Assembly: GCA_964609395.1 (NCBI GenBank)
Contig: CAZSRU010000007.1
Coordinates: 47 to 64,046 of the forward strand
DNA: 64,000 nucleotides
Reading direction: 5' to 3'
From: an uncultured Victivallales bacterium
Lineage (GTDB): Bacteria > Verrucomicrobiota > Kiritimatiellia > UBA8416
Part shown: positions 4,881-50,183 of the stretch, piece after piece
Numbering within the stretch: the first letter of the stretch is position 1
Layout of the letters: every line of letters begins with the position of its first letter
The notes under the pieces: generated by a model
What the model was told of the DNA's origin: nothing
Seen by the model: the letters and a program-made list of their open reading frames with translations, nothing else
Databases searched by the model: none
Made by a program: the position numbers and the translations under genes

Positions 4881-4915
4881 TTGCGGGGCACTATAGACGG
4901 GGCAAGCACACAGGT

Positions 4916-4960
4916 CAAGGTTGCTGCAAGGGTTGCTGCAAGGGGTGCTGCAAGGGGTTT
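4916..4960. repeat. Short tandem repeat, about four copies of caagg(g)(t)tgctg. It lies in the spacer between the R-M gene and the nuclease gene.
   Basis: caaggttgctg caagggttgctg caaggggtgctg caaggggtttgcgg read directly. Confidence 0.4.
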
Positions 4961-4975
4961 GCGGCGGAATGTCGC

Positions 4976-5542
4976 CTACTCCTCCGGTTGCTCCTCTTCC
5001 TTTTTGGGATGGTTCTTGATCCACTCCCACGGCGGAATCGAATTTTCGGTTGCCCAAATACCTTTCTTCTGCTCGATTGCCTTCTGGAAGGCGTTCTTCA
5101 ACTTACCGTAAGCCTCTTTTGGCTTTCCCATAGAAACTGCAAATTGTGCACGCGTCTCAACTAACCATGCATGGCCCTCTTCAACCAAGCGAAGATTGAC
5201 ACATGCTTCGTCTGGCCCAACGAACACCCACGCGCCATGTGATCGATCTTGATCAGTGAGTTCAACAATGTTGACACTCTTGCCCTTCACGAGTTTCTCA
5301 AGAAAAGCCTTCGCTTCCTTGCCGCCCGTCTGTTCGACTCCCGGTGCAGCTACCCCGTCTAGTTCCACATTCCCTTCTGATCGAAGCTGAATCCCATGTT
5401 TGAATAACTTGTTGCTTATCACGATGGTATCACCATCAATGACATCGAGTACCGTAGCCTGGTAACTGAGTGTTCTGGTAGCCCAGCATGTATTGACCAT
5501 CAGTAATCCGAAGCCCATGACTTGTAGCACGATACGTTTCAT
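4976..5542 (-). CDS. Secreted thermonuclease (staphylococcal nuclease/SNase-like) with an N-terminal signal peptide.
   Basis: MKRIVLQVMGFGLLMVNTCWA signal peptide. ATVLDVIDGDTIVI and a downstream SNase-like core are present. Strong SD AGGTGGTG lies 5 nt upstream of the ATG. Local GC is visibly lower than the flanks. Confidence 0.8.
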   Translation of the reverse strand: MKRIVLQVMGFGLLMVNTCWATRTLSYQATVLDVIDGDTIVISNKLFKHGIQLRSEGNVELDGVAAPGVEQTGGKEAKAFLEKLVKGKSVNIVELTDQDRSHGAWVFVGPDEACVNLRLVEEGHAWLVETRAQFAVSMGKPKEAYGKLKNAFQKAIEQKKGIWATENSIPPWEWIKNHPKKEEEQPEE

Positions 5543-5557
5543 ATTATCACCACCTTT

Positions 5558-8500
5558 TTACTCTCCAAGCGCATCTGACCACATTGCCCACGGCAAAATA
5601 TCAACCGCGCCGCCAGAACCAGAACCAATGAGGACGATTTTGCCTTCACTGTTCACAAAAAGCAGGACACTCCAGACTTCCTGTGGAGGTGCGTCCGTTG
5701 CCTTCTTCCACTCGTTCGCGTTGTCTTCGTCGCCTGGGTATGACAGTTCTGGAACGGTAGCCGACGTAAACTGCCATCGGATGTTCCTGATAGGGTCTCC
5801 GGGCTTAAGTGTATCCGCTCCACCTCCCGTGTCTTGATATTCAGGATTTTTGGCCTCGCCGCCTTCATAGGTGTGCGAAAGAGCAAACGACACATTCGTT
5901 TGCGCAACTGAAGCATTGAGAAGCGTGACCAAATACCCGGAGGTATTACTCTGATGCTCACCAAGAGTATCTGCATCCTCGCTAACTGCTGTCTCGAGTG
6001 CCGCCTGCTTGCTGACAATACCTGTTGAGAGAGTCGCCACCTCGATTCCCATGTGCCAGTGGTCGTAGTCCCAAGGGTAAGAGCCAACGCTTCGACTACT
6101 GGGAATGTCGAGTTGGAGCAGGTTTGTGTGAGCCGCATGGAAATTGGTATAGGTGATCGAGGAAAGGCCAGAATCAGGGAAACTGTCATTACTCATTTGC
6201 AGCTTCTGATTCCTGCCAGGTCGAGGATCGAGACAGAATACAATAGTATCAATAATAGCTGCCTTGACATCTACATGCAGCCCGCTGTAGTCCGGGTGCA
6301 TCTCAAGATTTCCCACACCCAGACGCTGCAAATCGTTCCAACTGAAATTCTTCACGACGGCAATCTCATCCCGGCAGCCAGAATAAGGATGCTCAATAAT
6401 GATGCGATCGCCCTGTTGAACACTTGATATCGTCAGGATATTGGATGAAATCGACATTTGAGGAACGGCATTCGAACCATCGTTTAGGCGGATGCTGGCG
6501 TTCAGCCACCCGTCGGCAAAGTGTAGCGCCCCAGTAGTACCAACCCATCTGATGTCGGCTTCAGCGGAAGTGCCCCGCCGATACTTGATATTGACATCCG
6601 CACTATCCAATCCAAGCAGTTGTACATCCCAGTCGACGTTTATCTGATCTGGTTCCGGGAAGGTGGCAATCACCCACTTCTTGCCCGGCGTATCATCGTA
6701 GATCGGTAAAATTGGAAGCGCCGGGTAGTATACATTGGTCAGAACAATAACAACATCTACAGCATCAATCTGATAAGCGGCACCGCAAGGCGACGGAGCA
6801 CCTTCCGGGGTGAAGTCACAATAGAGAGAACTCTGCCCTGACGCGATAGCCGTTACCAAGACGTTCGACCCCGTGTCCGAACCGACTATCTGGAGGTAAT
6901 TCGTATCCACTGACCACAGGTATGTTCCCGGCGTATTCATGTTCAGCACCGCCCTGTAGGTGTTGGTCTGGTCCACACCGAGATAGTAGCCCGGATCGTT
7001 GACCGGTTCAATATCGAGTTCCAGCGCTGTGCTGTTCGAGATTTCGGCGGTATCGCTGAGCGTTCCAATCGTGGTCAGGCAATTCGAGGGGGCCACAAAC
7101 GTCACGGTCAGTTCATTATATGAATAGCCACATTGCGGATAGTCAGCCGAAATATACGTTGCGCCATTGGTGGAGCTGGCGGGAGTCGCCGTATAGCCAT
7201 CCGGCACGCTGTAGGTGAAGACGCCATGCAGCCCGTCCGGGACGATGGTGGCGTCCAGATAAAAGTCATCGGGCCACGAAATAGAGATATCAACATCACT
7301 GAGGAAAACCACCGGGAATGCCACAAAGGCAAAGGGGTAGCCGCAAGCGATGCTATGCGGCGTTCCGAAAAGCCCCGCCGGATCGTGGATGACCATGGGA
7401 TTAGGGGCGGGATCGACCGATAACACCAACGCACCGCCGAGATGATCAGTTGCCCCGCTAAACGACATCGTATGCAACACCGCTCTCGGAAGCTGCAGTG
7501 CGAGATCCTTCACGGGGCTTTCGTGAGAGAATGGCACCGTAAGCGGACCGATCTGAAGCGTGGCAATGCCGTTGCCGGTCCCGCTACCGGTCAGTGCCTG
7601 ATACCCAGCCGAAAGCAGAAAGGTAGCGCCACCTGACTCGTGACTGGTCTCTCCGGCGTCGAGCGGGTTGCTGCCGCCGATGATTTCGGTGTAGTCGGAT
7701 ACTGTATCCCAGTCTGAATCCGCAGCCCATGGATCAGTGCCGTAGATCATCTCCTGATAATTCGTCAACCCGTCGTTGTCGCTGTCCTGAGTTTTTATTG
7801 AGGGGTCGAGCGGATCAAGGCCATGCTTGACAGCCCAGCCGTCGGGAATTCCGCAGCCGGACGATTGCCAGTTGAAGGGATCAGTCATGGCATCGGCTTC
7901 GCCCTTGAACGTGCGCTGTCCCCCGTTGTCCGCAAAGGCGATACCGGCGGCGGCAAATGCCAGGTAGCGCGGATCGGAGGCGTCAACCATCAGGTTATGG
8001 CCATCCAGCAGGCCGTCACCATCGCTGCCGGACTTGAGCGGATCAAGCGGGCCGGAAAGGGCGAGCGTGTAGTAATAACTACTCACCGACACCGTGGACA
8101 CGTGGGAAAGCCCGATCGGAACGTCACGCTCACCATACGTATTCCCCCCCCACGCCACAACGCGGCCATCGGCGCGAACGGCTACACTGTGGGTATATCC
8201 ACCATCAATCGCGATGGCGGCAACCACATTCGTAGCTCCTGAGCACTGTCCGTGGTAATTCCACCCCCAAGCGGCGACCGTACCGTCGGAACGCAGCGCG
8301 AGACTATGCCTATCGCCAGAGGCAATAGCGACGGCATTACTGACCGTTGTTGCCCCGCTGACTTGTCCATAGGAATCCGAGCCCCACCCTTGAACGGTAC
8401 CATCGGAAAGAAGGGCGAGGGAATGGCTAGAACCGGCAGCTACGGCAATTGCATTGGATACTGAAGATGCGCCGAAAACTCTCCCATCATAACCATTCCA

Positions 8501-10003
8501 CCCCCATCCAACAACCGTGCCGTCGTCAAGCAAAGCAAGAGCATGATAATCGCCTGCGGCAATCGAAACCGCATTCGTTACACTTGCAGGCACATTGAGT
8601 TGCCCGTAAGAGTTTGTTCCCCACCCAGCAACGGTACCGTCCTCAAGCAAGGCGAGGCTGTAGCGATCTCCAGCCGCCACTTTAACGGCATTGCTAATAC
8701 CGGCCGCCCCCGATACTTCCCCATTCGCGTCATCACCCCATGCGGAGATGGTGCCATCCGCCCGCGCGGCAAGACAATGCCAATGACCAGCGGAAATACT
8801 GACCGCATCGGTCAGGGAGGCGGGAATAGATGCTTGCCCAGTATCATTGACTCCCCAGTGGGAAATCCGGCTCCAGTTCGCTTCCGCACCGTCTAGCAAG
8901 CCGTCGCCGTCGCTGTCATTCTGGTTCGGATCGGTTCCGGCCTGGTATTCCCCGAGGTTGGTCAGCCCGTCGCTGTCGGCATCGCCCAGGGCATCGGCGG
9001 CATTCAAAGGATCAAGGCCGTGCTGGATTTCCCAGCCGTCGGGCATGCCATCGCCGTCGGTGTCGGTGTTGTAGCGGTCCGTCCCGTAAAGGCGGACTTC
9101 CCGCCCGTCATAGAGTTCGTCGCCGTCGCCGTCATAGTGCGTCCAGGCATCGAGAAAGCGTTTTTCGCCATCTCCGGCGGCGGGGGCGGTGAAGGCGAAG
9201 CTGCCCGCCGCGTTGTTGACGTTGGTAGTCAGCAGGATCTGCCACTGCTGCACCATCAGGTCGTCGCAGGAGAAGATATCGAGTCCTTCGGAAGCCAGCG
9301 TTCCTGACGGCCAGCTCAAGCTGACGTCAACCGTGCCGTTGGTTTGCACGGCCAGCGAGTCGAACGCCAATCCGCTGCCAGTGTAACTGAGGGAGCTGAG
9401 TGCCAGCGGGGTGAAGGTCAGCGATTGCGTTGCGGCAACCGATTCGGTCATGACTTTTTTGATCAGCTCGTCCTCCGTGATCAGCCGGAACCGCACCATG
9501 ATGCGGGAAGGATCGTACAGCGCGACCTGCCAGGCTGCCGTTTCGGCATCAAGGGAGGCAAGATCGGGAAACCGCAGCCGGACATACCAGAGCGGATCGT
9601 ACCCCTTGGGAGCCTTGATCTCGGCAATCACATCACCGACGGCATTCAGGACATGTCGCTCGCCGCTGTCGGGTACTTCTAGGACCGTAATCGGATAAAC
9701 CGTGACGCCATTCTCGCTAGATGGAAGCAACCGCCTGACAAAACGCGATGGAAATGCGTCCGGATCAAATGGCAGCAGCCCGCCGTCCTGTAGGTGGATG
9801 AAATCCGGATCGGGCAACACAATCGGCAGGATTGAATACTGCATCGACTCGAACGCGCTGATCAGGTCAGGCACGTTCTCTACCGCCAGCGACATGTAAC
9901 TGGCATAAAGCGCCTTGTCAAACGGGACGGGCTCGGCGGAAAGATGCACGCTGTCAACAGCATACACGGTCAGGTTGGCAACCATCAGGCAAGCGCTCAA
10001 CAT
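5558..10003 (-). CDS. Giant secreted protein (~1480 aa). It has a signal peptide, thrombospondin type-3-like Ca-binding Asp repeats, a ~7-blade RCC1/BLIP-II beta-propeller, more TSP3-like repeats, and an ~800-aa C-terminal region with no motif I recognise. Start chosen at MLSACLMVANLTVYA (10003); the ORF track extends to 10252.
   Basis: RCC1 repeats are read as GHWHCLAARADGTISAWGDDANGEV... x~7 (SLALLxDGTVxGWGxNxYGQ). TSP3-like DTDGDGMPDGWE, DSDGDGLLDG and DSDNDGLTN are present. A hydrophobic N-terminus follows M84 of the track ORF. Lower GC than the genome. Confidence 0.7.
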   Translation of the reverse strand: MLSACLMVANLTVYAVDSVHLSAEPVPFDKALYASYMSLAVENVPDLISAFESMQYSILPIVLPDPDFIHLQDGGLLPFDPDAFPSRFVRRLLPSSENGVTVYPITVLEVPDSGERHVLNAVGDVIAEIKAPKGYDPLWYVRLRFPDLASLDAETAAWQVALYDPSRIMVRFRLITEDELIKKVMTESVAATQSLTFTPLALSSLSYTGSGLAFDSLAVQTNGTVDVSLSWPSGTLASEGLDIFSCDDLMVQQWQILLTTNVNNAAGSFAFTAPAAGDGEKRFLDAWTHYDGDGDELYDGREVRLYGTDRYNTDTDGDGMPDGWEIQHGLDPLNAADALGDADSDGLTNLGEYQAGTDPNQNDSDGDGLLDGAEANWSRISHWGVNDTGQASIPASLTDAVSISAGHWHCLAARADGTISAWGDDANGEVSGAAGISNAVKVAAGDRYSLALLEDGTVAGWGTNSYGQLNVPASVTNAVSIAAGDYHALALLDDGTVVGWGWNGYDGRVFGASSVSNAIAVAAGSSHSLALLSDGTVQGWGSDSYGQVSGATTVSNAVAIASGDRHSLALRSDGTVAAWGWNYHGQCSGATNVVAAIAIDGGYTHSVAVRADGRVVAWGGNTYGERDVPIGLSHVSTVSVSSYYYTLALSGPLDPLKSGSDGDGLLDGHNLMVDASDPRYLAFAAAGIAFADNGGQRTFKGEADAMTDPFNWQSSGCGIPDGWAVKHGLDPLDPSIKTQDSDNDGLTNYQEMIYGTDPWAADSDWDTVSDYTEIIGGSNPLDAGETSHESGGATFLLSAGYQALTGSGTGNGIATLQIGPLTVPFSHESPVKDLALQLPRAVLHTMSFSGATDHLGGALVLSVDPAPNPMVIHDPAGLFGTPHSIACGYPFAFVAFPVVFLSDVDISISWPDDFYLDATIVPDGLHGVFTYSVPDGYTATPASSTNGATYISADYPQCGYSYNELTVTFVAPSNCLTTIGTLSDTAEISNSTALELDIEPVNDPGYYLGVDQTNTYRAVLNMNTPGTYLWSVDTNYLQIVGSDTGSNVLVTAIASGQSSLYCDFTPEGAPSPCGAAYQIDAVDVVIVLTNVYYPALPILPIYDDTPGKKWVIATFPEPDQINVDWDVQLLGLDSADVNIKYRRGTSAEADIRWVGTTGALHFADGWLNASIRLNDGSNAVPQMSISSNILTISSVQQGDRIIIEHPYSGCRDEIAVVKNFSWNDLQRLGVGNLEMHPDYSGLHVDVKAAIIDTIVFCLDPRPGRNQKLQMSNDSFPDSGLSSITYTNFHAAHTNLLQLDIPSSRSVGSYPWDYDHWHMGIEVATLSTGIVSKQAALETAVSEDADTLGEHQSNTSGYLVTLLNASVAQTNVSFALSHTYEGGEAKNPEYQDTGGGADTLKPGDPIRNIRWQFTSATVPELSYPGDEDNANEWKKATDAPPQEVWSVLLFVNSEGKIVLIGSGSGGAVDILPWAMWSDALGE

Positions 10004-10514
10004 AAACGGCTTTGTTTTCAATATAACTCCATAATCTCTGCATGCAGGCTGCGCTTTCAGCCCGCATGACCAATGAGCCCTTAACCCTGCCCTGCAAATG
10101 GAGAGAAGAAAAGGGCGCGAACTACTGTCAAGCCCTGTGGAGGGACCGCGAAGCCCCTTGGAGGAACATGAAACAGGAGCCGCGCCCACGTGGGGCGCGT
10201 TCCCGCCAGTTCGTTCCTCCAATTGAAAATTCGCGGTTTTCCACAGGAACAATACTTGCGCTAACGCAAAATCTATAATGTCGCTTGTTTTTACTGTTCT
10301 ATATGCCTATGAAATTCTCCAATTCATACATCATTCCACCAATCCAACTGTTATCCACAGTAATCATCTACATTCGCGGTGGCAAGAAATTTTTGCCAAG
10401 TGCCTGATTTAAGCTTTCGAGATGCAACGTAATCCCCGAATTGCAGTTTGACCTGCCCGCCGCGCTCCGGCATGATAGGCGTGACCTTATAAACCAGCCG
10501 AGAGGATCACCATC

Positions 10515-32187: not shown

Positions 32188-34230
<2,043 letters not shown>

Positions 34231-34279: not shown

Positions 34280-34507
34280 CGCCCTACAATGGTATGGAAA
34301 TCCAATGCAACCGGCAAACGTTTTCTCCTCAATGCATATCCTGCTGGGAGCGGATCTGTCCCGCAATCCCATCCCGCCTTCCACGATGGCGGTTTCGGTT
34401 TCGGCGGGGTTGTCGATGATGCGGTCGATCTGGCGGTCGGAGGCGCTGTTCTGGGGTTCAAGCAGGTCGAGGATGTTCGGGTTCTGCTCCGCCGCTTTCT
34501 TCTTGTT
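34280..34507 (-). pseudogene. GC-rich coding-like remnant (KKKAAEQNPNILDLLEPQNSASDRQIDRIIDNPAETETAIVEGG...) lacking a start codon. It is a probable 3' fragment of a disrupted methyltransferase/R-M-type gene. Its core is ~90% identical to 46440-46516.
   Basis: The open frame begins directly after the exonuclease gene stop. Codon third positions are GC-rich, like the host. Shared core is gtcgaggatgttcggg.t.t.ctccgccgctttcttcttgtt. Confidence 0.35.
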
Positions 34508-35677
34508 TTAAATCATTTCTACCGACATGAAATCACTTACATGACATACCGCGATGCCATAGTCCCTTGCCTTCTCAATCTTGCCCGTGCGTGAATCTTT
34601 CTCACCGCAATTTACAAGTAAGTTTGTTTGCTTCGTAACATTAGCACTTGGCAAATACCCATTTTCAACAGCCCACGGGAACAGTGTTTCATAACGATCT
34701 ACAACAACGTCTTTTACCACCAGTTCATTTGTAAAGCATACGACTTTTAATCCAGGCACGATTTCTTTGATGAGTGTAAAATGCACGGACGTATTGAACC
34801 CGAAAAGGGTTGCAAGCTCCTCTAGGTCGGAAAATTCATCCCACGTGATCTTCCCGTCCTCATAGTAATCGGCGATTAGCCCAAGCATGGCCTTTCGTAG
34901 CTCATTTTGTGCAACTTTCTTGTCAATCTGGATGCTGGCGATCCGATCCATTTCGTTTGCATCAAAAACCCGATCTTCGCAGATTTCTTCTATCAATCGG
35001 TTGAACAAGTCAATGCTCACCTCATCCTTCCTGTCCCCCCATCCGTCGAATGCTTTCAAGCTATGTGTCGTTCTTTGCTTTGCTTTAACAGGGAACATGG
35101 GGTCGTGTTCATTTTGCAAAAAGCCACGATACACATCCATATCATAAATATGGCACGTATGCTTGACTCCCTCTTTCTGCTGAATCATGAAAAGTTCTCG
35201 AACCATGTTAACATCATCCTCAGCCTTATGTTCTTGAGTGATGTCAATGCCCCTTCGCTGCAAAGACTCATACAATCGATTGCCTCCCATGCCAAACCGG
35301 TGTTGCTCTGTCTTGCATGTGCAGATATAGCTCATTGGCTGGGGGTCAATTCCAGCAGCAAGGAATTCTGCGAATAGAAATTTAAGATCAAATTGAACGT
35401 TATGGCCGACAATAATTTTACCGAACATCTGATCGTACACTGTACGAGCAATCTCGGAGAACAACGGTGCACCTGTTATCATGTCGCGATCAATCCCGTT
35501 GATTTCAGTTATCCGTGCAGGTATTGGATGGCCAGGATCTATCAATGTCGTAAAACAACCACCGACTTTGCTGTAAATGCATATTTCCAGAATACCGCAT
35601 CCCCTCTTTGGGGAAAGTCCTGTTGTCTCAAGGTCTAGGAATACCAACTGATTCTCATCATTTTTTAAAAACATCAT
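34508..35677 (-). CDS. DnaQ-like DEDDh 3'-5' exonuclease fused to a C-terminal BRCT-like domain.
   Basis: Exo I FLDLETTGLSP, Exo II HNVQFDLKFL, Exo III H..AEDDV. The C-terminal ~80 aa (GLKVVCFTNELVV...NLLVNCGEKDSRTGKIEKARDYGIAVCHVSDF) has a BRCT-like pattern. The ATGATG start with AGGAG SD lies 20 nt inside the upstream channel gene. Low GC. Confidence 0.75.
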   Translation of the reverse strand: MMFLKNDENQLVFLDLETTGLSPKRGCGILEICIYSKVGGCFTTLIDPGHPIPARITEINGIDRDMITGAPLFSEIARTVYDQMFGKIIVGHNVQFDLKFLFAEFLAAGIDPQPMSYICTCKTEQHRFGMGGNRLYESLQRRGIDITQEHKAEDDVNMVRELFMIQQKEGVKHTCHIYDMDVYRGFLQNEHDPMFPVKAKQRTTHSLKAFDGWGDRKDEVSIDLFNRLIEEICEDRVFDANEMDRIASIQIDKKVAQNELRKAMLGLIADYYEDGKITWDEFSDLEELATLFGFNTSVHFTLIKEIVPGLKVVCFTNELVVKDVVVDRYETLFPWAVENGYLPSANVTKQTNLLVNCGEKDSRTGKIEKARDYGIAVCHVSDFMSVEMI

Positions 35678-36497
35678 GTTGCTGCTCCTGATCTATTTTT
35701 TTGCCGTTTTCAAGCGCTTCCAGACGACGGCTGATGGTTTTCAGTTCGTTTAGGATTTCTTCAGCTTGGTTTTCGCGGGGATTCTGTATGAAAAACAATG
35801 CAACGTAGGCCGTGAAGGCACCAAGCATGCCAACGCCGGCGACCATCAAGATGGCGGCAATGATCCGCCCCGTTAGCGTGACGGGATAAAAATCACCGTA
35901 TCCGACTGTGGTGATGGTCACAAACGACCACCAAATGGCGTCGGATGCCGTCTTTATGTTGCTGTCCGGCGCGGTCTCACAATTCAATATGGCAATAGAG
36001 GACGACACTATCAAGAGAAAGGAAATCATCGAAACGCTGGCGAGGGTACCTTTTGCGCGATTCGCGAAGATGACCTTAGCAATATGCCTTGTAGATCGGA
36101 TTCCACGAAGAATTCTGAGAATGCGGATGATTCTGATCAACCTTCCCCACCGAAGCAGCGAAATGTTAGGAATACTCGACAACAGATCAATCCACCCCCA
36201 CTTCAAATATCCCAGACGGTTTTTGGATCGGATGACGTTGAACACAAAATCACCGATAAAAACCAGGCAGATAAGATTGTCGATATACGTCAGCAGGGAG
36301 GATGTTTCTGCCGGAAGCGTGACAATGGTGTCTACAAATAGTGCGCCCAGTACATAGACGCAAAGAATGAGCATCACGATCTGCCAGATGGCAGCCACGT
36401 TTTCTTTATCAATGCCTTTTGATAAACGATTTATCATGATTGATGGATTTCCTAGCCAGATAACCACGGCCGCACTGTATATATTTTCTTCGGCCAT
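35658..36497 (-). CDS. Voltage-gated K+ channel homolog (6TM, Kv/KvAP-like, no RCK domain). Start chosen at MAEENIYS; the ORF-track N-terminal 73 aa are a duplicated transposase-gene fragment.
   Basis: S4 voltage sensor RWGRLIRIIRILRILRGIRSTR (Arg every third residue). Pore helix + selectivity filter TTVGYGD. S5/S6 helices. Low GC. Confidence 0.75.
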   Translation of the reverse strand: MAEENIYSAAVVIWLGNPSIMINRLSKGIDKENVAAIWQIVMLILCVYVLGALFVDTIVTLPAETSSLLTYIDNLICLVFIGDFVFNVIRSKNRLGYLKWGWIDLLSSIPNISLLRWGRLIRIIRILRILRGIRSTRHIAKVIFANRAKGTLASVSMISFLLIVSSSIAILNCETAPDSNIKTASDAIWWSFVTITTVGYGDFYPVTLTGRIIAAILMVAGVGMLGAFTAYVALFFIQNPRENQAEEILNELKTISRRLEALENGKKIDQEQQHDVFKK

Positions 36498-36509
36498 GTC
36501 CAGATCGGC

Positions 36510-36995
36510 GATACGGGCGGCCCAGGCGTTCATGGCAAGGCATTGCTCGCGGGTGTGCTTGGCGGGGGGGGGGCTTCTTCCGGCGGGCGGCAGGCGAGGA
36601 TGAGGAGTCGGCCTTGCAGGCAGAGGTCGAAGTACTGGCCGCGCGGCTTGAAGCAGGCGTCGAACCCGTCGGGCTTGATGAGTTAATCGGGGTAAGCTTT
36701 CAGTATGGCATGCCACAGGTCATAGACCAGCCAGCCGTCTTCGTTGAGCCGTGCGCGATTGTCGGCGCAATGGGCGAAGAGCGGGCGGCGCTCGTGGGTC
36801 GTCATCGTGATCATGTAGAAGGCGGGGGCTCGGTAGTCCTGGCAGGGGCTGCGGCGGTTCATTCACCCCTCCTTTGGCGGGGCGTGAACGCCCCTTGTGG
36901 GACTGGATACGCGCACACGCAGCAGACATGCGCCATCCGGCACGTGAGCCGTAATACAATCCCGATCCCGTGTTCACACGGGAGCCGCTGCCCGC
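36510..36995 (-). pseudogene. Internally deleted tandem copy of the RAYT-like gene. It retains the 3'-end fragment (36510-36680, ~170 bp, matching 37055-37225) fused to the promoter/5'-end fragment (36690-36990, ~300 bp, matching 37765-38085), and it includes REP-like hairpins.
   Basis: Direct comparison of the two copies. The truncated frame MNRRSPCQDYRAPAFYMITMTTHERRPLFAHCADNRARLNEDGWLVYDLWHAILKAYPD* stops after ~58 codons. Confidence 0.6.
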
Positions 36996-37001
36996 ACACG
37001 C

Positions 37002-37928
37002 TCATTCATTTTCCCCCATCCCGTGCAGTTCCGCGTCGGCGGCGGCGATGGCAGCGGCCCAGTGGTTCATGGCCAGGCATTGCTCGCGAGTGAGCTTGGC
37101 GGGGGCTTCTTCCGGCGGGCGGCAGGCGAGAATGAGCAGCCGGCCTTGCAGGCAGAGGTCGAAGTACTGGCCGCGCGGCTTGAAGCAGGTGTCGAAGCCG
37201 TCGGGCTTGATGAGGATGACTTCGCCACCGGCATCCAGTGCCGCGCGGGCAATGGCCTTTTCCCCCGGCGAGATGAAGGGCGAGACGATGACCGCGCCCT
37301 CGCCAACCCGCTTGAGCGTGGCCTGTCGCTCGGCGTCCAGTTCCGGTTGAGTAACCCGCCGCGAGACCCGCAGGGAATGCATCTCGGGTTTATCGAGAAG
37401 GAACAAGTTGCCGTAGCCCGTCCAAGGTTCGTCCGGCGGTAACCGGGCATGGCGAAGATTGTTGACACGGCGGAAAAGGTCGGGGTGCGCCTTCTTGAGG
37501 CAGTAGCGGCGGGGATTGTCGCAAAGGTAATGGGTATAGGCTTTCAGCGCGCCCCGGCGCCAGACGCACAGGTCGTGGTATCCGGGGCTCCACACGGTCA
37601 GTCTGGGATTTCCGTATTTCTTGCGCAGAGCGCTGGTGACCTGCGACTTGAACGCCCGCAAGGGCACACCCACGCTCTGTTGCATGCTGGCGGTCACCCG
37701 CACGATGCCGTGGAGGTGATCGGGCATGATCACCAGCGTGGAGAGCGCCACTTCGGGGTAGGTTTTCGGCATGGCATGCCATAGGTCATAGACCAGCCAG
37801 CCGTCTTCGTTCAGCCGTGCGCGGTTGTCGGCGCAATGGGCGAAGAGCGGGCGGCGCTCGTAGGTCGTCATCGTGATCATGTAGAAGGCGGGAGCTCGGT
37901 AGTCCTGGCAGGGGCTGCGGTGGTTCAT
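37002..37928 (-). CDS. HuH Y1 transposase of the IS200/RAYT (REP-associated tyrosine transposase) family with a ~160-aa C-terminal extension of unknown function. Start chosen at MNHRSPCQ with SD GGAGGT.
   Basis: IMPDHLHGIV (HuH motif) and AYTHYLCDNPRRY (catalytic Tyr / Y..NP motif) align with RayT LPEHMHCIW and DYRHHVDYIYINPVKH. REP-like hairpins GGGGCGTGAACGCCCC and CCCGTGTTCACACGGG lie upstream. Confidence 0.7.
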   Translation of the reverse strand: MNHRSPCQDYRAPAFYMITMTTYERRPLFAHCADNRARLNEDGWLVYDLWHAMPKTYPEVALSTLVIMPDHLHGIVRVTASMQQSVGVPLRAFKSQVTSALRKKYGNPRLTVWSPGYHDLCVWRRGALKAYTHYLCDNPRRYCLKKAHPDLFRRVNNLRHARLPPDEPWTGYGNLFLLDKPEMHSLRVSRRVTQPELDAERQATLKRVGEGAVIVSPFISPGEKAIARAALDAGGEVILIKPDGFDTCFKPRGQYFDLCLQGRLLILACRPPEEAPAKLTREQCLAMNHWAAAIAAADAELHGMGENE

Positions 37929-38085
37929 GAGTACCTCCGCTGGCGGGGCGTGAACGCCCCCCGTGGTACTGGATACCGGGTTCGCGCCGGCTCCGCCTTG
38001 GGCGCGAACGCCCCGTGCACGCCGCAGCATCCAGTTCCGGTCGCGTGTTCACACGGGAAGCCTTGCCAACTGCCGCTCATGCTTC
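37765..38085. repeat. Repeat B copy 2: upstream region and 5' end of the RAYT-like gene with REP-like hairpins (ggggcgtgaacgcccc; ggttcgcgcc...ggcgcgaacc; cccgtgttcacacggg). It lies directly after the atpG stop.
   Basis: ~90% identical to 36690-36990. The hairpins were read directly. Confidence 0.6.
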
Positions 38086-38114
38086 TGCTCCCATCTAGCA
38101 CAAACCGTCCTTTC

Positions 38115-38963
38115 CTAGCGGTACATGCCCGCGACGATTTCGAGCATTTCGGTGGTGATGTTCTCCTGGCGCAGGCGGCTGTAGCGCTTGCGCAGGCCCG
38201 TGAGCATCTCGCCGGCATTCTCGGCGGCGCGGCTCATGGAGAGCTGGCGCTGGGCGTGTTCCGAGGCGGCGCTGTTATGGAAGGCGTCGTGGATCGCGCG
38301 GCGGACGTATTCCGGCAGCAGGCTGTCGATCAGCGCCTGCGCGGAAGGCTCGATCGGCGGGGAGGCGGGGGCGGCGGGCGCCGTCGCACCGGAAGCGGGG
38401 ACGAGGGTGGTGATCGGCAGCAGTTGCTGCACGGTGATCTCCTGGCGGCTGCGGGTGATGAAATCCCAGTACAGCAGATGCACTTCGCGAAACCGGCCGC
38501 TGCCGAAGTCGTCCATCATGCGATCAGCCAGCCCCTCGATCTGCTCGACCCGCTCCAGCGGGGCGAGCTGCCGGCGCACAGCCCGGTTGTACGGCACCTT
38601 GCCGCTCATCAGGAGATGCACGGTGTCATCGCCGTGCTGCTCGACGAACGTCGTGACCGCCTTCATCAGGACCGTGTTGAACGTGCCGCACAAGCCGCGG
38701 TCGGCCCCGAACACAAGCAGCGCGATGGCGTTCCCGCCCGCCCGCGGCTGCATCAGCGGGTGGGACTCCGCACCGGACGGCAGACCGCGGTCGGCCAGGT
38801 TCAGCAGGGCCAGCAGGCGCCCGGTGTACTCGTCGGCATTGGCGATGCGCCGCTGCTCCTGGACGAGCTTGGCGCTGGCCACCTTCTGCAGGGTGCTGGT
38901 GACCTTGCGGATCTGCGCCGTCGTGCCGATGCGCCGCTTGATGTCTGATAACGCTGTTGCCAT
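38115..38963 (-). CDS. atpG: F1 ATP synthase gamma subunit.
   Basis: MATALSDIKRRIGTTAQIRKVTSTLQKVASAKL... and C-terminal ITTEMLEIVAGMYR are canonical. Confidence 0.9.
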   Translation of the reverse strand: MATALSDIKRRIGTTAQIRKVTSTLQKVASAKLVQEQRRIANADEYTGRLLALLNLADRGLPSGAESHPLMQPRAGGNAIALLVFGADRGLCGTFNTVLMKAVTTFVEQHGDDTVHLLMSGKVPYNRAVRRQLAPLERVEQIEGLADRMMDDFGSGRFREVHLLYWDFITRSRQEITVQQLLPITTLVPASGATAPAAPASPPIEPSAQALIDSLLPEYVRRAIHDAFHNSAASEHAQRQLSMSRAAENAGEMLTGLRKRYSRLRQENITTEMLEIVAGMYR

Positions 38964-46019: not shown

Positions 46020-46229
46020 TCAAGGTTTTCGCTGCGATCTGGCCGTCAGCAGCAGCATCGGGCCGACAAAGAATGCTTTCCCGATGAAGTAGAGCCCGAT
46101 CCCCGTGGAGACGGCATCGTTTCCATGGTCGAGTCCGGTCTTGGTCAGGATCCACAGACCCGCGCCGAGACAGAACACAAACGCCAGGAAAGCCGAAACC
46201 GTGCATGCCTTCACCATTCTCTCATCCAT
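46020..46229 (-). CDS. Small membrane protein (two predicted TM helices, 69 aa).
   Basis: MDERMVKACTVSAFLAFVFCLGAGLWIL...GIGLYFIGKAFFVGPMLLL. SD GGAGAT is 6 nt upstream. Confidence 0.35.
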   Translation of the reverse strand: MDERMVKACTVSAFLAFVFCLGAGLWILTKTGLDHGNDAVSTGIGLYFIGKAFFVGPMLLLTARSQRKP

Positions 46230-46366
46230 GTCATCATCTCCTTTTGCGCCCAATTGTCTCGATGTTAAGGATTCATTATTATGTACCTTCTCGCCAGCCA
46301 ATTTCGCCATTCTTCAAACGCTGGGGTGCCTTGGATGGTTGAAATATGCTTTTCAAACGTACAACC

Positions 46367-46516
46367 GATCACATGCGATTGAGCACCGCAGTTTCCATCC
46401 CGTACAAACCGGCGACGATGGCGTTGATGCGGGTTTCGGTGGCGCTGATCTGCGTTTCGAGCTGGTCGAGGATGTTCGGGGTCTTCTCCGCCGCTTTCTT
46501 CTTGTTCAAGTCCAGC
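46367..46516 (-). pseudogene. 49-codon GC-rich ORF/remnant MLDLNKKKAAEKTPNILDQLETQISATETRINAIVAGLYGMETAVLNRM. It resembles the C-terminal end of R-M methyltransferase-type proteins (...LYG.TE...) and is homologous to 34400-34507.
   Basis: It lies 22 nt after the HTH gene stop. Its core is near-identical to the remnant beside the exonuclease gene. Confidence 0.3.
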
Positions 46517-46538
46517 ATGCGTTGCGGCGCAACTGGCT

Positions 46539-46844
46539 TTACGCTTCAACCAGGTATTCAGGATGGCGCTCTGCAATTTCCAGCAGACGCAGGGCAGGAC
46601 CGGACGGTTTGCGGCGACCTTGTTCCCAACTGATTTCCGTATCGCGGGCAACGCCCAATACACGAGCGAATACAGCCTGGCTTACGCCCAGTGCTTTGCG
46701 AATGCGCACAATATCTTTTGACGGGCGTTCTTCGGGTAATTCCGGGATCGGCACGCGTTTCGTTTTTAGCGTTATCTTCCCCTGTGCATGCGCCAGCACC
46801 TCGTTCAGGCTTTCCGTAAGTTCAACGAATAATTCTTTCTTCAT
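46539..46844 (-). CDS. XRE-family HTH protein of the COG2944/HigA-like antitoxin type.
   Basis: LGVSQAVFARVLGVARDTEISWEQGRRKPSGPALRLLEIAERHPEYL is the characteristic HTH + ...EQGRR.PSG.A..LL tail. Confidence 0.7.
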   Translation of the reverse strand: MKKELFVELTESLNEVLAHAQGKITLKTKRVPIPELPEERPSKDIVRIRKALGVSQAVFARVLGVARDTEISWEQGRRKPSGPALRLLEIAERHPEYLVEA

Positions 46845-47042
46845 TCCTATACTCTGATAAGTTCAGTAATACGCCTCGTGAAGATGCTTGTCTCAATAAA
46901 TGTGACGTGATGTTTCATATAACTATATGACTATGTACAATAGACCGTTCAGTCTTCCGATGCAAGAACGTTTTTATATTTGTCGGCAATTAGTCGCGTT
47001 CCACTATGGACAAATCGTCAATGGCGCTGTTCATCACATTGT

Positions 47043-50000
47043 TCATTTCTCTGCTCCGTAAAGCTCCGCGACGGCGGAGTCGAGGGTGGCGGTTAGGGCG
47101 GCGAGTTGGTTTTTGCGGTTTTCGGTTTCGTGCGGGGAGCCGGGGGCGGCGAGTTGTTGCCGCAGGGCGATGAGCTGATCGACTAGGGCGATGAGCTGGC
47201 GGACTTTCTCCGGTCCGGCCTCCTCGGGCGGGATGACCGGGGCGGTCTCGATGTATTGCTTGGAGAATTTGATGTAGCCGCCGCGCAGGTTGGTACTTTG
47301 CGCCGCGATGATGTCGCCGAATTGAGAGGAGTTCATCAAGGCCAGCAGGTATTTGATCGGGTAGGCGGCGGTTTTGGGTCGGATGCCGTAGAAGGGGCCG
47401 CTGCCGCCGCCGGTCATGTAGAGTCCGGTGGTGTCGAGCATGACGGTCGGCCGCTGCGCGGTGACCTGGATGATGAGCTTATCGGCGTCCATCTGCGTAA
47501 GATTCTGCGAACGGCCGAAGGCGTACCAGCGGTCGTGCTTCCATTTGCCCCGTTCACGCTGTCGCAAGGTATCACGATTTTCGCAGAGATAGGTCCAGCC
47601 TTTCGGGTATTTGTGCTCAAGCGTTTCCGCCGTCATCAGTTCGGCTTTGCCGTTGACGATCTCGTAGGGGAAGATGATGCGGGCTACCGGTTGCGGCGTG
47701 GTGTAGGCACTAAGTTCCCCGGTCAGCAGGAACGGTCGAGTGAGACCGCGTTCGATTTTCGAGTCAAGCGGGACAACAAATACGTTGTCGGCACTGGTTT
47801 GAAGGCCGACGAAGATGTGCGCGACATCGCCAAGCTTGGTTTTTAGCCTGTCGAGGCGTTCGAGCGTCCCTGCGTTCTTCCCGGTGATGAAGTTCCAGGG
47901 TTCGTCGGTGAGCAGCTTGTTGGGTGTCGTGCCGATGATGGATGCGCCGTCTTTCCTTGGTTTACGAATCCGGTAGAGGGCGGCGGCTTCCTTGAGGGTC
48001 GGTGTGGTGCTTGTGCTCTGATGAACAGGCGAGACGCCTGTGCAACTTTTGGGTTCCTGTTCGGAACGCCATTCGGCAAGATCCGGCACCAGCCGATGTG
48101 AACAGGTTGTCATGCTTGCTTTTTCGAGAAACAGCAAACATGTATAGGTGGTTGCCCCCGCGAAGACCTGCTGGTCGCCGAAGTGGACAAGGTGCCTCAG
48201 GTGCTGTCCTGCGGTGATGATTTTGCGCAATGGCCGTCCGTATTGCGCGTTGATGAACTTGTGTGGCAGGATGTAGCCCATGCTGCCGTTAGGGTTGAGA
48301 AGCTGGAGTGCCTTTTCCACGAAGACGACGTAGATGTCGTAGTTGCCTGCCGATGCCGCATGGTACAGCGTCTTGTAAAGTTCGACTTCAGCCGGTGCCC
48401 ACTCCTTCATGGTCTGGATGCGGATATACGGCGGATTGCCGATGATGCAGTCGAAGCCGCCGCCGCCGTCAAACACCCTTGCGAATGCCTGTTTCCAGTC
48501 GAAGACGTTGATGCGGTAACGGTCATCCTCGGACAGCAGGGAAAGCTCCTGCTGGCGATAAATCTCCGGGCCGATGAGGGAGTTGCCGCATTTGATGTTG
48601 CCGCCGAGGTCGGGCAGGATGCGCTGGCGCTCGCTGAGGAAGTCGCGCTGGAGCTGCTGTTGGGTTTCGCCCTCCAGCACCTTGAGCAGTAGCGAGAGCT
48701 TGGTGACTTCAACCGCCTGGGAGTCGATGTCCACCCCGTGGATGCTGTTGAGCAATATGCGCTTGCGTTCGGCGGTGGTGAGTCGCCAGGTGTCGCCAGC
48801 GGCCTGGTAAATCTTTGGTGCTTTCCCGGCGGCGTTGCGTCTGGCTTTTTCGAGATCGAGTTCGCCGGTGGCGGGATCGGCGGTGTATTGCCTTAAATGC
48901 CAGTCGAGCAGGTATTGGTAGGCGACGATCAGGAACGAGCCGGACCCGCAGGCGGGATCCAGCACCTTGATCTCGGCGGCTTTGGCCATGGAGACGGGCT
49001 GGGGCTTTCCGGGATCTTCGCCATCGAGGAGCCGTCCGAGGGTATTCTGGACGATGTAGTCGACGATGTAGCTGGGGGTGTAGTAGACGCCGCCCGCCTT
49101 GCGGACTTCGGGCTTTTCCTCGATTTTGGCCTGATGGCCGTCGGTCAAGCGGATGGTCTTGCCCAGGAACTGCTCGTAGACTTGGCCGAGGATGTCGGCG
49201 GACAGGACGGAGAATTCGTAGGGGGAGTCCGGGTAGTAGAGGTTCTTGAGGATGTCCTTGAGGATCTTGTCGTCGATCTCCAGATGCGTGGTGAGCGTAT
49301 CGGGGGAGCCGGTGCGGCCTTTTTCGCCGGAGTCGAAGTGGAAGAGCCCGGAGTTGTAGCGTGCATCAGCCTGGTGGAAGAGCTGCTGTAGGCGGGTGTA
49401 GGTGCGCGGACCGTTGAGCAGTGCCTGCAGGCGGCCGTAGTCCTCGGTGCCGCGGTCCTCGCAGATGCGCAGGAAGATGATCCGGTCGATGGTCTTCTGC
49501 ACGGCGAGGTTGAGATCGCGGACGGTGAGGCCGGGGTTGCGGATGGCGAGGTTGCGGGCGAGCAGGTCGCGCCAGCGTTCGATCTCGGCCAGGAAGGTAT
49601 CGTCCACCGCGCCGGTGCCGCGTTTGCCCTTGGCGGTTTCGGCGTATTTGTCGAAGGAGCCGCGCAGGATGGCGTCGCGGGAAAAGACCGCCGCTATCTC
49701 GTTCCATTTGTCGACGTACTGGTCGAATGTGTAGTAGAGGATACGGGCCTTGGCGGGGCGGTCGGCCTTTTCCGGTTTGACGCGGGTGTCGTAGACGGCC
49801 AGCTCTTCGAAGTCGGAAAGAATGGAAAGCGGGAGCTTGGCGGACCAGCCGTAGCGGCGGAGCTGGTAGGCGGGGGCGATGTCAACGTCGATATTGACCG
49901 AGGGCTTCTTGGCCTCGACGAAGAACTTGCGGGTGCCGCCGATGCGGAAACAGTAGCCGGGAGCCTTGGTATAGCCGCCGATGCGGATGGCGTCCTCATG

Positions 50001-50183
50001 GATGACGTCCTTGTAGGCGTCGGCATAGCCCGCCTTGTTGTCGACGTCCCAGCCCAGGGCAGTAAAGAACGGGTCGAGGAACTCGCGGCGCAGTTCGGTC
50101 TCGTTATAGCCGCCGGAGGTGTAGTGCTCGCGGTGCAGGGTGAAGGTCTCGCACAGGGCGCGTATGCTTTCGGGTGCCGGCAT
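47043..50183 (-). CDS. Bifunctional type IIG restriction-modification enzyme (Eco57I/AcuI-like): N-terminal HsdR-N-like nuclease domain + N6-adenine methyltransferase + target-recognition region.
   Basis: N-terminal ...HYTSGGYNETELRREFLDPFFTALGWDV...YKDVIHED. LDPACGSGSFL (SAM binding). GNPPYIRIQ (motif IV). 1046 aa. SD AAGGAAAA. Confidence 0.8.
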   Translation of the reverse strand: MPAPESIRALCETFTLHREHYTSGGYNETELRREFLDPFFTALGWDVDNKAGYADAYKDVIHEDAIRIGGYTKAPGYCFRIGGTRKFFVEAKKPSVNIDVDIAPAYQLRRYGWSAKLPLSILSDFEELAVYDTRVKPEKADRPAKARILYYTFDQYVDKWNEIAAVFSRDAILRGSFDKYAETAKGKRGTGAVDDTFLAEIERWRDLLARNLAIRNPGLTVRDLNLAVQKTIDRIIFLRICEDRGTEDYGRLQALLNGPRTYTRLQQLFHQADARYNSGLFHFDSGEKGRTGSPDTLTTHLEIDDKILKDILKNLYYPDSPYEFSVLSADILGQVYEQFLGKTIRLTDGHQAKIEEKPEVRKAGGVYYTPSYIVDYIVQNTLGRLLDGEDPGKPQPVSMAKAAEIKVLDPACGSGSFLIVAYQYLLDWHLRQYTADPATGELDLEKARRNAAGKAPKIYQAAGDTWRLTTAERKRILLNSIHGVDIDSQAVEVTKLSLLLKVLEGETQQQLQRDFLSERQRILPDLGGNIKCGNSLIGPEIYRQQELSLLSEDDRYRINVFDWKQAFARVFDGGGGFDCIIGNPPYIRIQTMKEWAPAEVELYKTLYHAASAGNYDIYVVFVEKALQLLNPNGSMGYILPHKFINAQYGRPLRKIITAGQHLRHLVHFGDQQVFAGATTYTCLLFLEKASMTTCSHRLVPDLAEWRSEQEPKSCTGVSPVHQSTSTTPTLKEAAALYRIRKPRKDGASIIGTTPNKLLTDEPWNFITGKNAGTLERLDRLKTKLGDVAHIFVGLQTSADNVFVVPLDSKIERGLTRPFLLTGELSAYTTPQPVARIIFPYEIVNGKAELMTAETLEHKYPKGWTYLCENRDTLRQRERGKWKHDRWYAFGRSQNLTQMDADKLIIQVTAQRPTVMLDTTGLYMTGGGSGPFYGIRPKTAAYPIKYLLALMNSSQFGDIIAAQSTNLRGGYIKFSKQYIETAPVIPPEEAGPEKVRQLIALVDQLIALRQQLAAPGSPHETENRKNQLAALTATLDSAVAELYGAEK

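Follow-up and report, generated by a model that had tools for sequence, protein, structure and literature searches.

A foreign-composition cassette in which a Kv-type potassium channel gene overlaps a DEDDh exonuclease gene, a possible two-gene conflict module

We analyzed a 64,000-nucleotide stretch of DNA from an uncultured Victivallales bacterium (assembly GCA_964609395.1, contig CAZSRU010000007.1, positions 47 to 64,046; hereafter "the window"). Its ATP-synthase operon holds an insert carrying a two-gene cassette: a gene for a six-transmembrane (6TM) potassium channel of the voltage-gated (Kv) type and, overlapping its 3' end, a gene for a DEDDh exonuclease with a C-terminal BRCT domain. 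In the closest relatives of the channel the overlapping gene again encodes a nuclease, in one case apparently the same exonuclease and in two a different enzyme. Our tentative reading of this arrangement is that the cassette may be a mobile, restriction-linked conflict module whose membrane channel stays constant while the nuclease coupled to it can be exchanged. A first-pass annotation of the same DNA had put the pair forward as a candidate defence module of another kind, with the channel as effector. The cassette comprises the following parts.

35658..36437, minus strand: Kv/KvAP-type 6TM K+ channel gene, recognized by its Pfam domains, S4 segment and selectivity filter
35658..35695, minus strand: gene junction, with AGGAG, 7 nucleotides and an ATGATG start inside the last 20 nucleotides of the channel open reading frame (ORF)
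34508..35677, minus strand: DEDDh 3'-5' exonuclease gene, 389 amino acids, matching PADLOC PDC-S48 over its full length (DEDDh domain, residues 1-175; helical middle, ~180-305; BRCT, ~308-389)

Both ORFs in the block are intact on the minus strand, at 35658..36716 for the channel and 34508..35677 for the exonuclease, and the block is a unit of foreign composition. GC content between 34500 and 36500 is 0.43-0.49, compared with 0.62-0.69 in the flanks, and the two-gene block forms the GC minimum of the window (0.439; window mean 0.618, standard deviation 0.053). At third codon positions, GC content (GC3) is 0.46 and 0.55 for the two cassette genes and 0.84-0.91 for the atp genes. The channel stops at 35658 and the exonuclease begins with ATGATG at 35677, giving a 20-nucleotide overlap; this layout, as read from the letters, implies translational coupling and an operon-like unit. 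It recurs in three other loci, with overlaps of 11 nucleotides in L182 and 23 in both L007 and L008. The first-pass annotation had described a lower-GC block of ~2 kb with two genes, and an operon joined by a 20-nucleotide overlap with an ATGATG start and an AGGAG Shine-Dalgarno sequence; the coordinates and composition profiles agree with it on each of these points.

Judged by its domains and motifs, the upstream gene product is predicted to be a voltage-gated K+ channel of the 6TM Kv/KvAP type. Ion_trans (E 3e-18; 66.3 bits vs. 25) and Ion_trans_2 (E 1.9e-16; 60.2 bits vs. 22.5) both score above the curated Pfam cut-offs, and the Pfam scan returned no further domain, including any ligand domain. 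The S4 segment, RWGRLIRIIRILRILRGIRSTR, bears a full arginine ladder with a basic residue at every third position, the selectivity filter is TVGYGD, and the C terminus is a short coiled tail, so that the earlier description of a 6TM Kv-type channel with S4 and filter and no RCK or ligand domain holds. The best sequence matches in the PDB are KcsA and Kv1.x, and the NCBIfam model K_channel_Meth matches weakly (44.6 bits vs. an equivalog cut-off of 300). An ATG at 36437 or 36497 is the likely start (the source annotation uses 36533), and homology to relatives sets in at DKENVAAIWQ. The channel is under purifying selection, with a ratio of nonsynonymous to synonymous divergence (dN/dS) of 0.09-0.21 at dS 0.45-1.4.

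The exonuclease carries the Exo I DxE, Exo II D and Exo III H-x4-D residues on an RNase H-like fold and a BRCT fold at its C terminus, in line with the domains first proposed for it. It matches the PADLOC profile PDLC05027 (PDC-S48) with E 1.8e-44, residues 12-385 aligning to profile positions 7-403 of 411, and its PADLOC matches are limited to PDC-S48 and DEDDh models; on this match it is classed as a new member of the known candidate family PDC-S48. Because the dnaQ equivalog models all score far below their cut-offs (TIGR01406, 55.1 vs. 222.7; PRK05711, 50.1 vs. 196; and all others too), the protein is not a replicative proofreader, and the concern raised at first pass that it might be an ordinary DnaQ housekeeping paralogue falls away; the channel, too, is no orthologue of a housekeeping protein. 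Among DEDDh domains, its own most resembles those of the DinG-N, PolC and epsilon type. Close homologues form only ~20 clusters (54-62% identity) among 5.8 billion proteins. The nearest relative outside this close subfamily is P0296 (622 amino acids; 40% identity over 376 amino acids), in which a signal peptide, an extracytoplasmic domain of ~150 amino acids and one transmembrane helix (IPIGSITITFLLAISALSL, then RRKSR) are fused before the DEDDh-helical-BRCT part. In at least one lineage, then, an exonuclease of this type acts at the membrane. Among 54 exonuclease matches and the top 150 representatives there was no channel-exonuclease fusion; only the membrane-anchored variant P0296 came up.

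We fetched and inspected 178 loci with relatives of the channel. Only three of the 178 (L007, L008 and L182) encode a channel at least 75% identical, and all three have a nuclease gene overlapping the channel 3' end. The L182 channel is 79% identical at the protein level, and the ORF overlapping its stop begins MSVKIDENLIVFLDLETTGLSPKRGCGILEICIYSKD; the N terminus of this partner is 84% identical to the window exonuclease over the 37 residues that precede the contig end. The window and L182 are homologous at the DNA level from about codon 10 of the channel gene to beyond the junction, whereas their upstream flanks are unlike. The condition named at first pass for refutation, that the pair never co-occurs in other genomes, thus does not hold. 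The channels of L007 and L008 are 79-84% identical, and their overlapping partner is a SAP/winged-helix protein with a FokI-like nuclease domain; here DNA homology to the window ends ~70 nucleotides before the channel stop. The window channel is closer to that of L007 (dS 0.45) than to that of L182 (dS 1.1), and the partner exchange is therefore relatively recent and the channel-exonuclease linkage old. Some 50 further loci carry channels 50-75% identical, with a credible overlapping downstream gene in L015 only. That locus, in which a 56%-identical channel overlaps a DEDDh-DinG gene, was considered as a third instance of the pair and left ambiguous, because it lies among metabolic genes and a DEDDh-DinG protein may serve as a housekeeping helicase.

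The SAP/FokI-like partner belongs to a family of its own (L007:1705-2919, L008:7109-8644 and L185:4001-5518; proteins P0176-P0295). Its members are ~511 amino acids long, with a helical N-terminal region, winged helices, a SAP domain and a FokI-like cleavage domain, and form at least 391 clusters, well conserved and mostly from PVC-group bacteria. The family has no match in PADLOC, and the protein is a candidate stand-alone defence nuclease.

For restriction-modification (RM) genes, the window has these features.

47043..50183, minus strand: type IIG RM gene, 1046 amino acids, with orthologues directly upstream of the channel cassette in L007 and L182
46020..47042, minus strand: site 3' of the type IIG gene, the position of the cassette in relatives; here ~1 kb of low-GC, other material
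within 46020..47042, minus strand: truncated start of a RelE/HigB-like toxin gene
46539..46844, minus strand: MqsA/HTH (helix-turn-helix) antitoxin-like ORF
46369..46518, minus strand: RM C-terminal remnant, 49 codons
46020..46310, minus strand: small membrane ORF

The 3' part of the type IIG gene shares 91% DNA identity with L007 41-913, and its 5' part 93% with L182 662-873. In L007 the type IIG gene (PADLOC REase_MTase_IIG, E 1.3e-34) stops 18 nucleotides before the channel start, and in L182 an 81-codon type IIG remnant ends 3 nucleotides before it; in close relatives the cassette therefore sits directly downstream of the type IIG gene. Cassette GC content in these two loci is 0.47-0.49, with 0.59-0.61 in the upstream flank. 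In the window the orthologue lies ~10 kb from the cassette, and the 94 nucleotides that follow the exonuclease stop (34414-34507) are 82% identical to the RM remnant at 46413-46506. The cassette thus has a piece of the restriction locus on its 3' side and a degenerate copy of a RayT-like gene on its 5' side. Across the three contexts it adjoins RM genes or their remnants, and it occupies different sites in otherwise near-identical contexts. This adjacency and the PDC-S48 match of the exonuclease speak for a link of the cassette to defence, in line with the candidate defence module of the first-pass annotation. Each nuclease type is also met singly at sites typical of defence genes: an exonuclease homologue beside a PDDEXK_13/REase-ARP gene in L001, and a SAP-FokI-like relative beside the repressor of a provirus in L185.

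The gap that holds the cassette is itself a mosaic, with the following limits and contents.

38115..38963, minus strand: atpG (ATP synthase gamma), upstream limit of the 4.2-kb insert
37002..38030, minus strand: RayT-like (REP-associated tyrosine transposase-like) gene, intact, with a host-like GC3 of 0.80
36506..37020, minus strand: second RayT-like copy, internally deleted and frameshifted, its 3' end entering the channel ORF
36422..36505, minus strand: upstream cassette border; L007/L182 homology ends at 36421, RayT-copy homology runs from 36506, and GC content drops at ~36485
34414..34507, minus strand: downstream cassette border; RM C-terminal remnant (..NKKKAAEQNPNILDLLE..) starting at the first base after the exonuclease stop
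33889..34230, minus strand: DUF2442 ORF (Pfam E 4.2e-14), intermediate GC3 of 0.59, directly upstream of atpD
32472..33872, minus strand: atpD (ATP synthase beta), downstream limit of the 4.2-kb insert

The gene order is atpA, atpG, the 4.2-kb mosaic insert, atpD and atpC, with the cassette inside the insert, so that the insertion of a low-GC block into an essential operon, as first annotated, is confirmed for the ATP-synthase operon. Besides the cassette the mosaic carries the RayT-like gene, its internally deleted second copy and the DUF2442 ORF, which has no DUF4160 partner gene and is probably a further foreign fragment in the atpG-atpD gap. The intact RayT-like gene scores 51.6 with NCBIfam REP_Tyr_transpos (cut-off 80) and 17.6 with Pfam Y1_Tnp (cut-off 23). 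Together with its copy it forms a tandem duplication (36506-37020 vs. 37043-38095, 81-95% identity in pieces), the second copy lacking the segment equivalent to 37215-37752. We found no inverted or direct repeats flanking the cassette, the only repeats being those of the duplicated RayT gene. Of the "transposase" noted beside the cassette at first pass, the gene and a degenerate copy are thus present, but no transposon ends flank the cassette. Promoter and terminator scans gave hits at chance level only. Elsewhere, in L009, a RayT-like gene lies 65 nucleotides downstream of a 70%-identical channel.

With a constant channel, an exchanged nuclease and a restriction-linked position, the most likely role of the module would be defence against phages or other invading DNA. 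In modular defence systems the swapped part is usually the effector. Since the channel is constant and the catalytically intact nucleases vary, the effector is probably the nuclease, with the channel as the sensing or anchoring part. The channel would then place or license the nuclease at the inner membrane. Phage genome injection perturbs membrane potential and K+, and the voltage sensor would respond to such a disturbance of potential and K+ during injection. We infer that the module acts in defence, that its two proteins are physically coupled and that signalling runs from channel to nuclease. A more specific proposal, in which the Kv channel acts as an infection sensor that detects a transient change in potential or K+ upon phage genome injection and then recruits or licenses a docked, exchangeable nuclease (DEDDh-BRCT or FokI-like) to destroy the incoming DNA, is speculative, and we give it a low probability.

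Several results weigh against a channel-nuclease module with a defence role. The coupled architecture is confined to four loci in one narrow channel clade, these loci probably come from closely related organisms, and only 37 residues of the L182 partner are visible. The channel has no PADLOC match at E ≤ 1, and its C-terminal tail, considered as a partner-specific adaptor, was rejected as such because the tail is family-wide. PDC-S48 is itself a computational candidate only, and neither experimental evidence for it nor any paper naming it was found in the literature searched. The channel belongs to a very large family (more than 6,500 matches), most members of which have ordinary neighbours. 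We compared the immediate neighbours of two sets of channels, one at least 50% identical (50 loci) and the other less than 42% identical (40 loci), by PADLOC at E ≤ 1e-10: strong matches numbered ~8 of 80 in the former and ~5 of 80 in the latter, without clear enrichment. Pfam assigned the first 80 neighbour proteins to 102 different families, many of them housekeeping. Defence-island enrichment of the channel family was accordingly rejected, hand-picked neighbours such as PDC-S37, ZacA, NsnA/GmrSD and NYN not being borne out by the control, and we do not call the family as a whole defence-linked because the systematic scan lies near the control. A search of the gene neighbourhood, as suggested at first pass, thus recovered the pair in L182 but no clear defence enrichment across the family.

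In the main rival reading, two independent accessory genes share a hotspot and a transcript, and their overlap reflects operon compaction. The exonuclease would then be a lone PDC-S48-type defence gene and the channel a mobile "moron", perhaps with a role in K+ homeostasis or exclusion. The definition of PDC-S48 is that of a single-gene candidate, which the exonuclease matches over its full length. The six loci fetched for the closest exonuclease homologues (L001-L006; 54-62% identity) have no channel and represent three distinct contexts: (1) beside a PDDEXK_13/REase-ARP gene (one locus, L001), (2) in a run of small, unassigned ORFs (two loci) and (3) between ordinary genes (three loci). The SAP-FokI-like relative likewise stands alone in L185, beside a CI/LexA-like repressor in a provirus. 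Because these loci exist without a channel, neither nuclease family needs one. Channels ~70% identical also stand alone (L170, L172 and L173), and one of them travels in an integrase/Rep_trans element; gene turnover marks the site downstream of the RM gene, where unrelated remnants lie in the window; and temperate phages carry distant homologues of the channel (phrog_7872, 8.5e-45). Set against this, every one of the four loci in the closest clade pairs the channel with an overlapping nuclease gene. Their junction sequences are of three kinds (overlaps of 20, 11 and 23 nucleotides), in no case with an intergenic gap or a promoter belonging to the partner. The channel-exonuclease linkage has moreover outlasted a channel dS of ~1.1, and when the second gene was exchanged its replacement was again a nuclease in the same overlapping position. 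We regard independence of the two genes as somewhat less probable than the coupled module.

With regard to phages and plasmids, the collections searched contain no close relative of either cassette protein. All that they yielded were generic DEDDh domains and, from temperate phages, "ion transporter" genes with 30% identity, and in scans of viral contigs the channel and the exonuclease were not found together. The L172 element (L172:2073-8573), in which the 70%-identical channel is carried, is a small integrative element between Rce1-like and IMPDH genes that contains a tyrosine integrase, two HTH_17 genes and Rep_trans.

A second rival reverses the roles. In abortive infection of the RexAB type, the exonuclease-BRCT protein would sense phage DNA or replication intermediates and open the channel, the ion flux killing or arresting the cell. 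A two-gene module of a nucleic-acid-binding protein and an ion channel has the right parts for this, the BRCT and helical domains could act as sensor modules, and channels are known as effectors in Hailong HalA (PMC13434031) and among the membrane effectors of CBASS and type III CRISPR. A constant channel with a variable, intact nuclease nevertheless fits swapped effectors better than swapped sensors, and the intact voltage sensor implies gating by voltage, not by a partner. The TVGYGD filter is K+-selective; an open pore of this kind pulls the membrane potential to the K+ equilibrium value and, under usual gradients, does not collapse it. Because the channel lacks a cytoplasmic ligand- or partner-binding domain beyond its family-wide short tail, and because a K+-selective pore does not depolarize, we consider abortive infection unlikely. 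The logic suggested at first pass, a nucleic-acid sensor driving a depolarizing channel, is not supported: it is the channel that is conserved and the nuclease that is swapped.

Finally, a DnaQ proofreading or repair paralogue lying by chance beside an ordinary K+ channel is highly improbable. In favour of housekeeping genes are the likeness of the DEDDh domain to Pol III epsilon and to the N-terminal exonuclease of DinG, the wide spread of the DEDDh-helical-BRCT architecture (a profile search gave 2,426 representatives at E ≤ 1e-30) and the metabolic setting of the overlap in L015. The composition and mobility data argue strongly against this reading, with GC3 far below that of the neighbouring core genes (0.46-0.55 vs. 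0.84-0.91), an interrupted atp operon and a cassette that changes site, as do the dnaQ equivalog scores (e.g., 55 bits vs. 223) and the scarcity of close homologues (~20 clusters).

Among the wider relatives of the channel, other gene neighbours were observed. In L010 (1220-4180) and L174 (7239-12758), channels ~70% identical, one of them from Victivallis vadensis, are followed after 233-480 nucleotides by a giant helicase-nuclease of the composition DUF4011-AAA_11/12-MTES-DUF3320 that matches PADLOC PDC-S37 (E 2.9e-266). Channels ~41% identical are followed in four loci (L074:6715-8082, L141:2639-4009, L142 and L151:5753-7120) by a protein of ~455 amino acids that starts -1 to +12 nucleotides relative to the channel stop codon and matches nothing in Pfam or PADLOC. 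Here the channel thus has a second conserved partner. Distant relatives (<45% identity) have housekeeping neighbours, e.g., a Suv3-like helicase, G6PD and PALP enzymes. The Suv3-like helicase, of ~789 amino acids, lies about +85 to +92 nucleotides after the channel in Stutzerimonas/Pseudomonas-type loci (L045, L046, L048, L060, L112, L121, L122, L125 and L136). In the three of these that were scanned (L060, L112 and L136) it matches PADLOC PD-Lambda-1 with E down to 2e-174, and, since it is conserved across species, the gene may belong to the core genome and not to defence.

The window holds a second low-GC stretch (GC content ~0.50 at 5000-6500) within 2052-10252. There, a putative secreted staphylococcal-nuclease-like ORF of 188 amino acids (4976..5542), identified by eye, lies between an ORF of ~1000 amino acids resembling a methyltransferase/RM protein (2052..5057) and a 1564-amino-acid RCC1-repeat surface protein (5558..10252).

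If the channel and the nuclease work as a unit, a Kv-type voltage-gated channel would join the membrane components of bacterial immunity, and nuclease effectors would be swapped behind a constant membrane partner, as in Zorya. Small prokaryotic Kv channels, about whose function we believe little is known, would thereby gain a suggested physiological role. Should the sensor proposal be true, it would amount to an undescribed, membrane-potential-sensing immunity built on the channel type that underlies animal excitability. Two nuclease families emerge as candidate stand-alone defence genes, the PDC-S48-like DEDDh-helical-BRCT proteins and the SAP/winged-helix/FokI-like proteins of ~511 amino acids. 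In the literature searched there was nothing specific on Kv or K+ channels in defence islands or on DEDDh-BRCT defence genes, and a Kv-type channel paired with a nuclease is not described there.

Each half of the cassette has known counterparts. The channel resembles prokaryotic Kv channels of the KvAP/MVP type in its Ion_trans and Ion_trans_2 domains, S4 ladder, TVGYGD filter and length of ~250 amino acids, but unlike them lies in a mobile cassette, coupled to a nuclease. The exonuclease matches the PDC-S48 hidden Markov model over its whole length, and its close homologues, like that family, are stand-alone; PDC-S48 is, however, a single-gene candidate, whereas the window and L182 each have a Kv-type channel gene upstream that the exonuclease gene overlaps. 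Stand-alone DEDDh exonucleases with auxiliary domains have recently been reported as anti-phage genes (10.64898/2026.06.30.735675). For the ISG20-like "TONDO" proteins, Cap18 and Cas2-DEDDh, neither a BRCT tail nor coupling to a channel is described.

As a pair, the cassette may be compared with four systems. Lambda RexAB also joins a nucleic-acid-related protein to a membrane ion channel, although RexB is a nonselective channel with four transmembrane helices (4TM), RexA does not belong to the DEDDh nucleases, and the two genes stand in the opposite order. Hailong consists of HalA, a DNA-gated ion channel, and HalB, a nucleotidyltransferase (PMC13434031), and is likewise a two-gene defence operon with a tetrameric ion channel and a nucleic-acid enzyme. 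HalB, however, holds HalA shut by making oligo-dA, whereas the gene paired with the present channel encodes, by sequence and fold, a degradative DEDDh exonuclease, and HalA has a cytoplasmic oligonucleotide-binding crown, in place of which the present channel has a voltage sensor. A PADLOC scan of the cassette proteins found no homology to ZorA/ZorB, ZorC/D/E, KwaA or KwaB, the proteins of Zorya and Kiwa. Kiwa is a two-gene operon of a tetrameric membrane protein, KwaA, and a cytoplasmic KwaB, often near mobile elements (PMC13434031). The cassette shares with it the two-gene operon and the combination of a tetrameric membrane protein with a cytoplasmic, DNA-targeting partner, but KwaB binds DNA and is not a nuclease, and KwaA is a 4TM sensor without an ion-selective pore. 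In Zorya, disturbance of the envelope by an entering phage is sensed, and local DNA degradation follows (PMC13434031). Here the likeness lies in a conserved ion-conducting membrane complex (ZorAB) joined to variable DNA-targeting or nuclease partners (ZorC/D, ZorE and others), and the difference in that ZorAB is a MotAB-like proton stator, whereas the cassette has a 6TM K+ channel, two genes and a function that is only inferred. The cassette would thus follow the same logic of a membrane sensor with a DNA-targeting partner as Zorya and Kiwa, and its channel-nuclease coupling is, as far as the genes can be read, a new form of the "membrane component plus DNA-targeting partner" theme.

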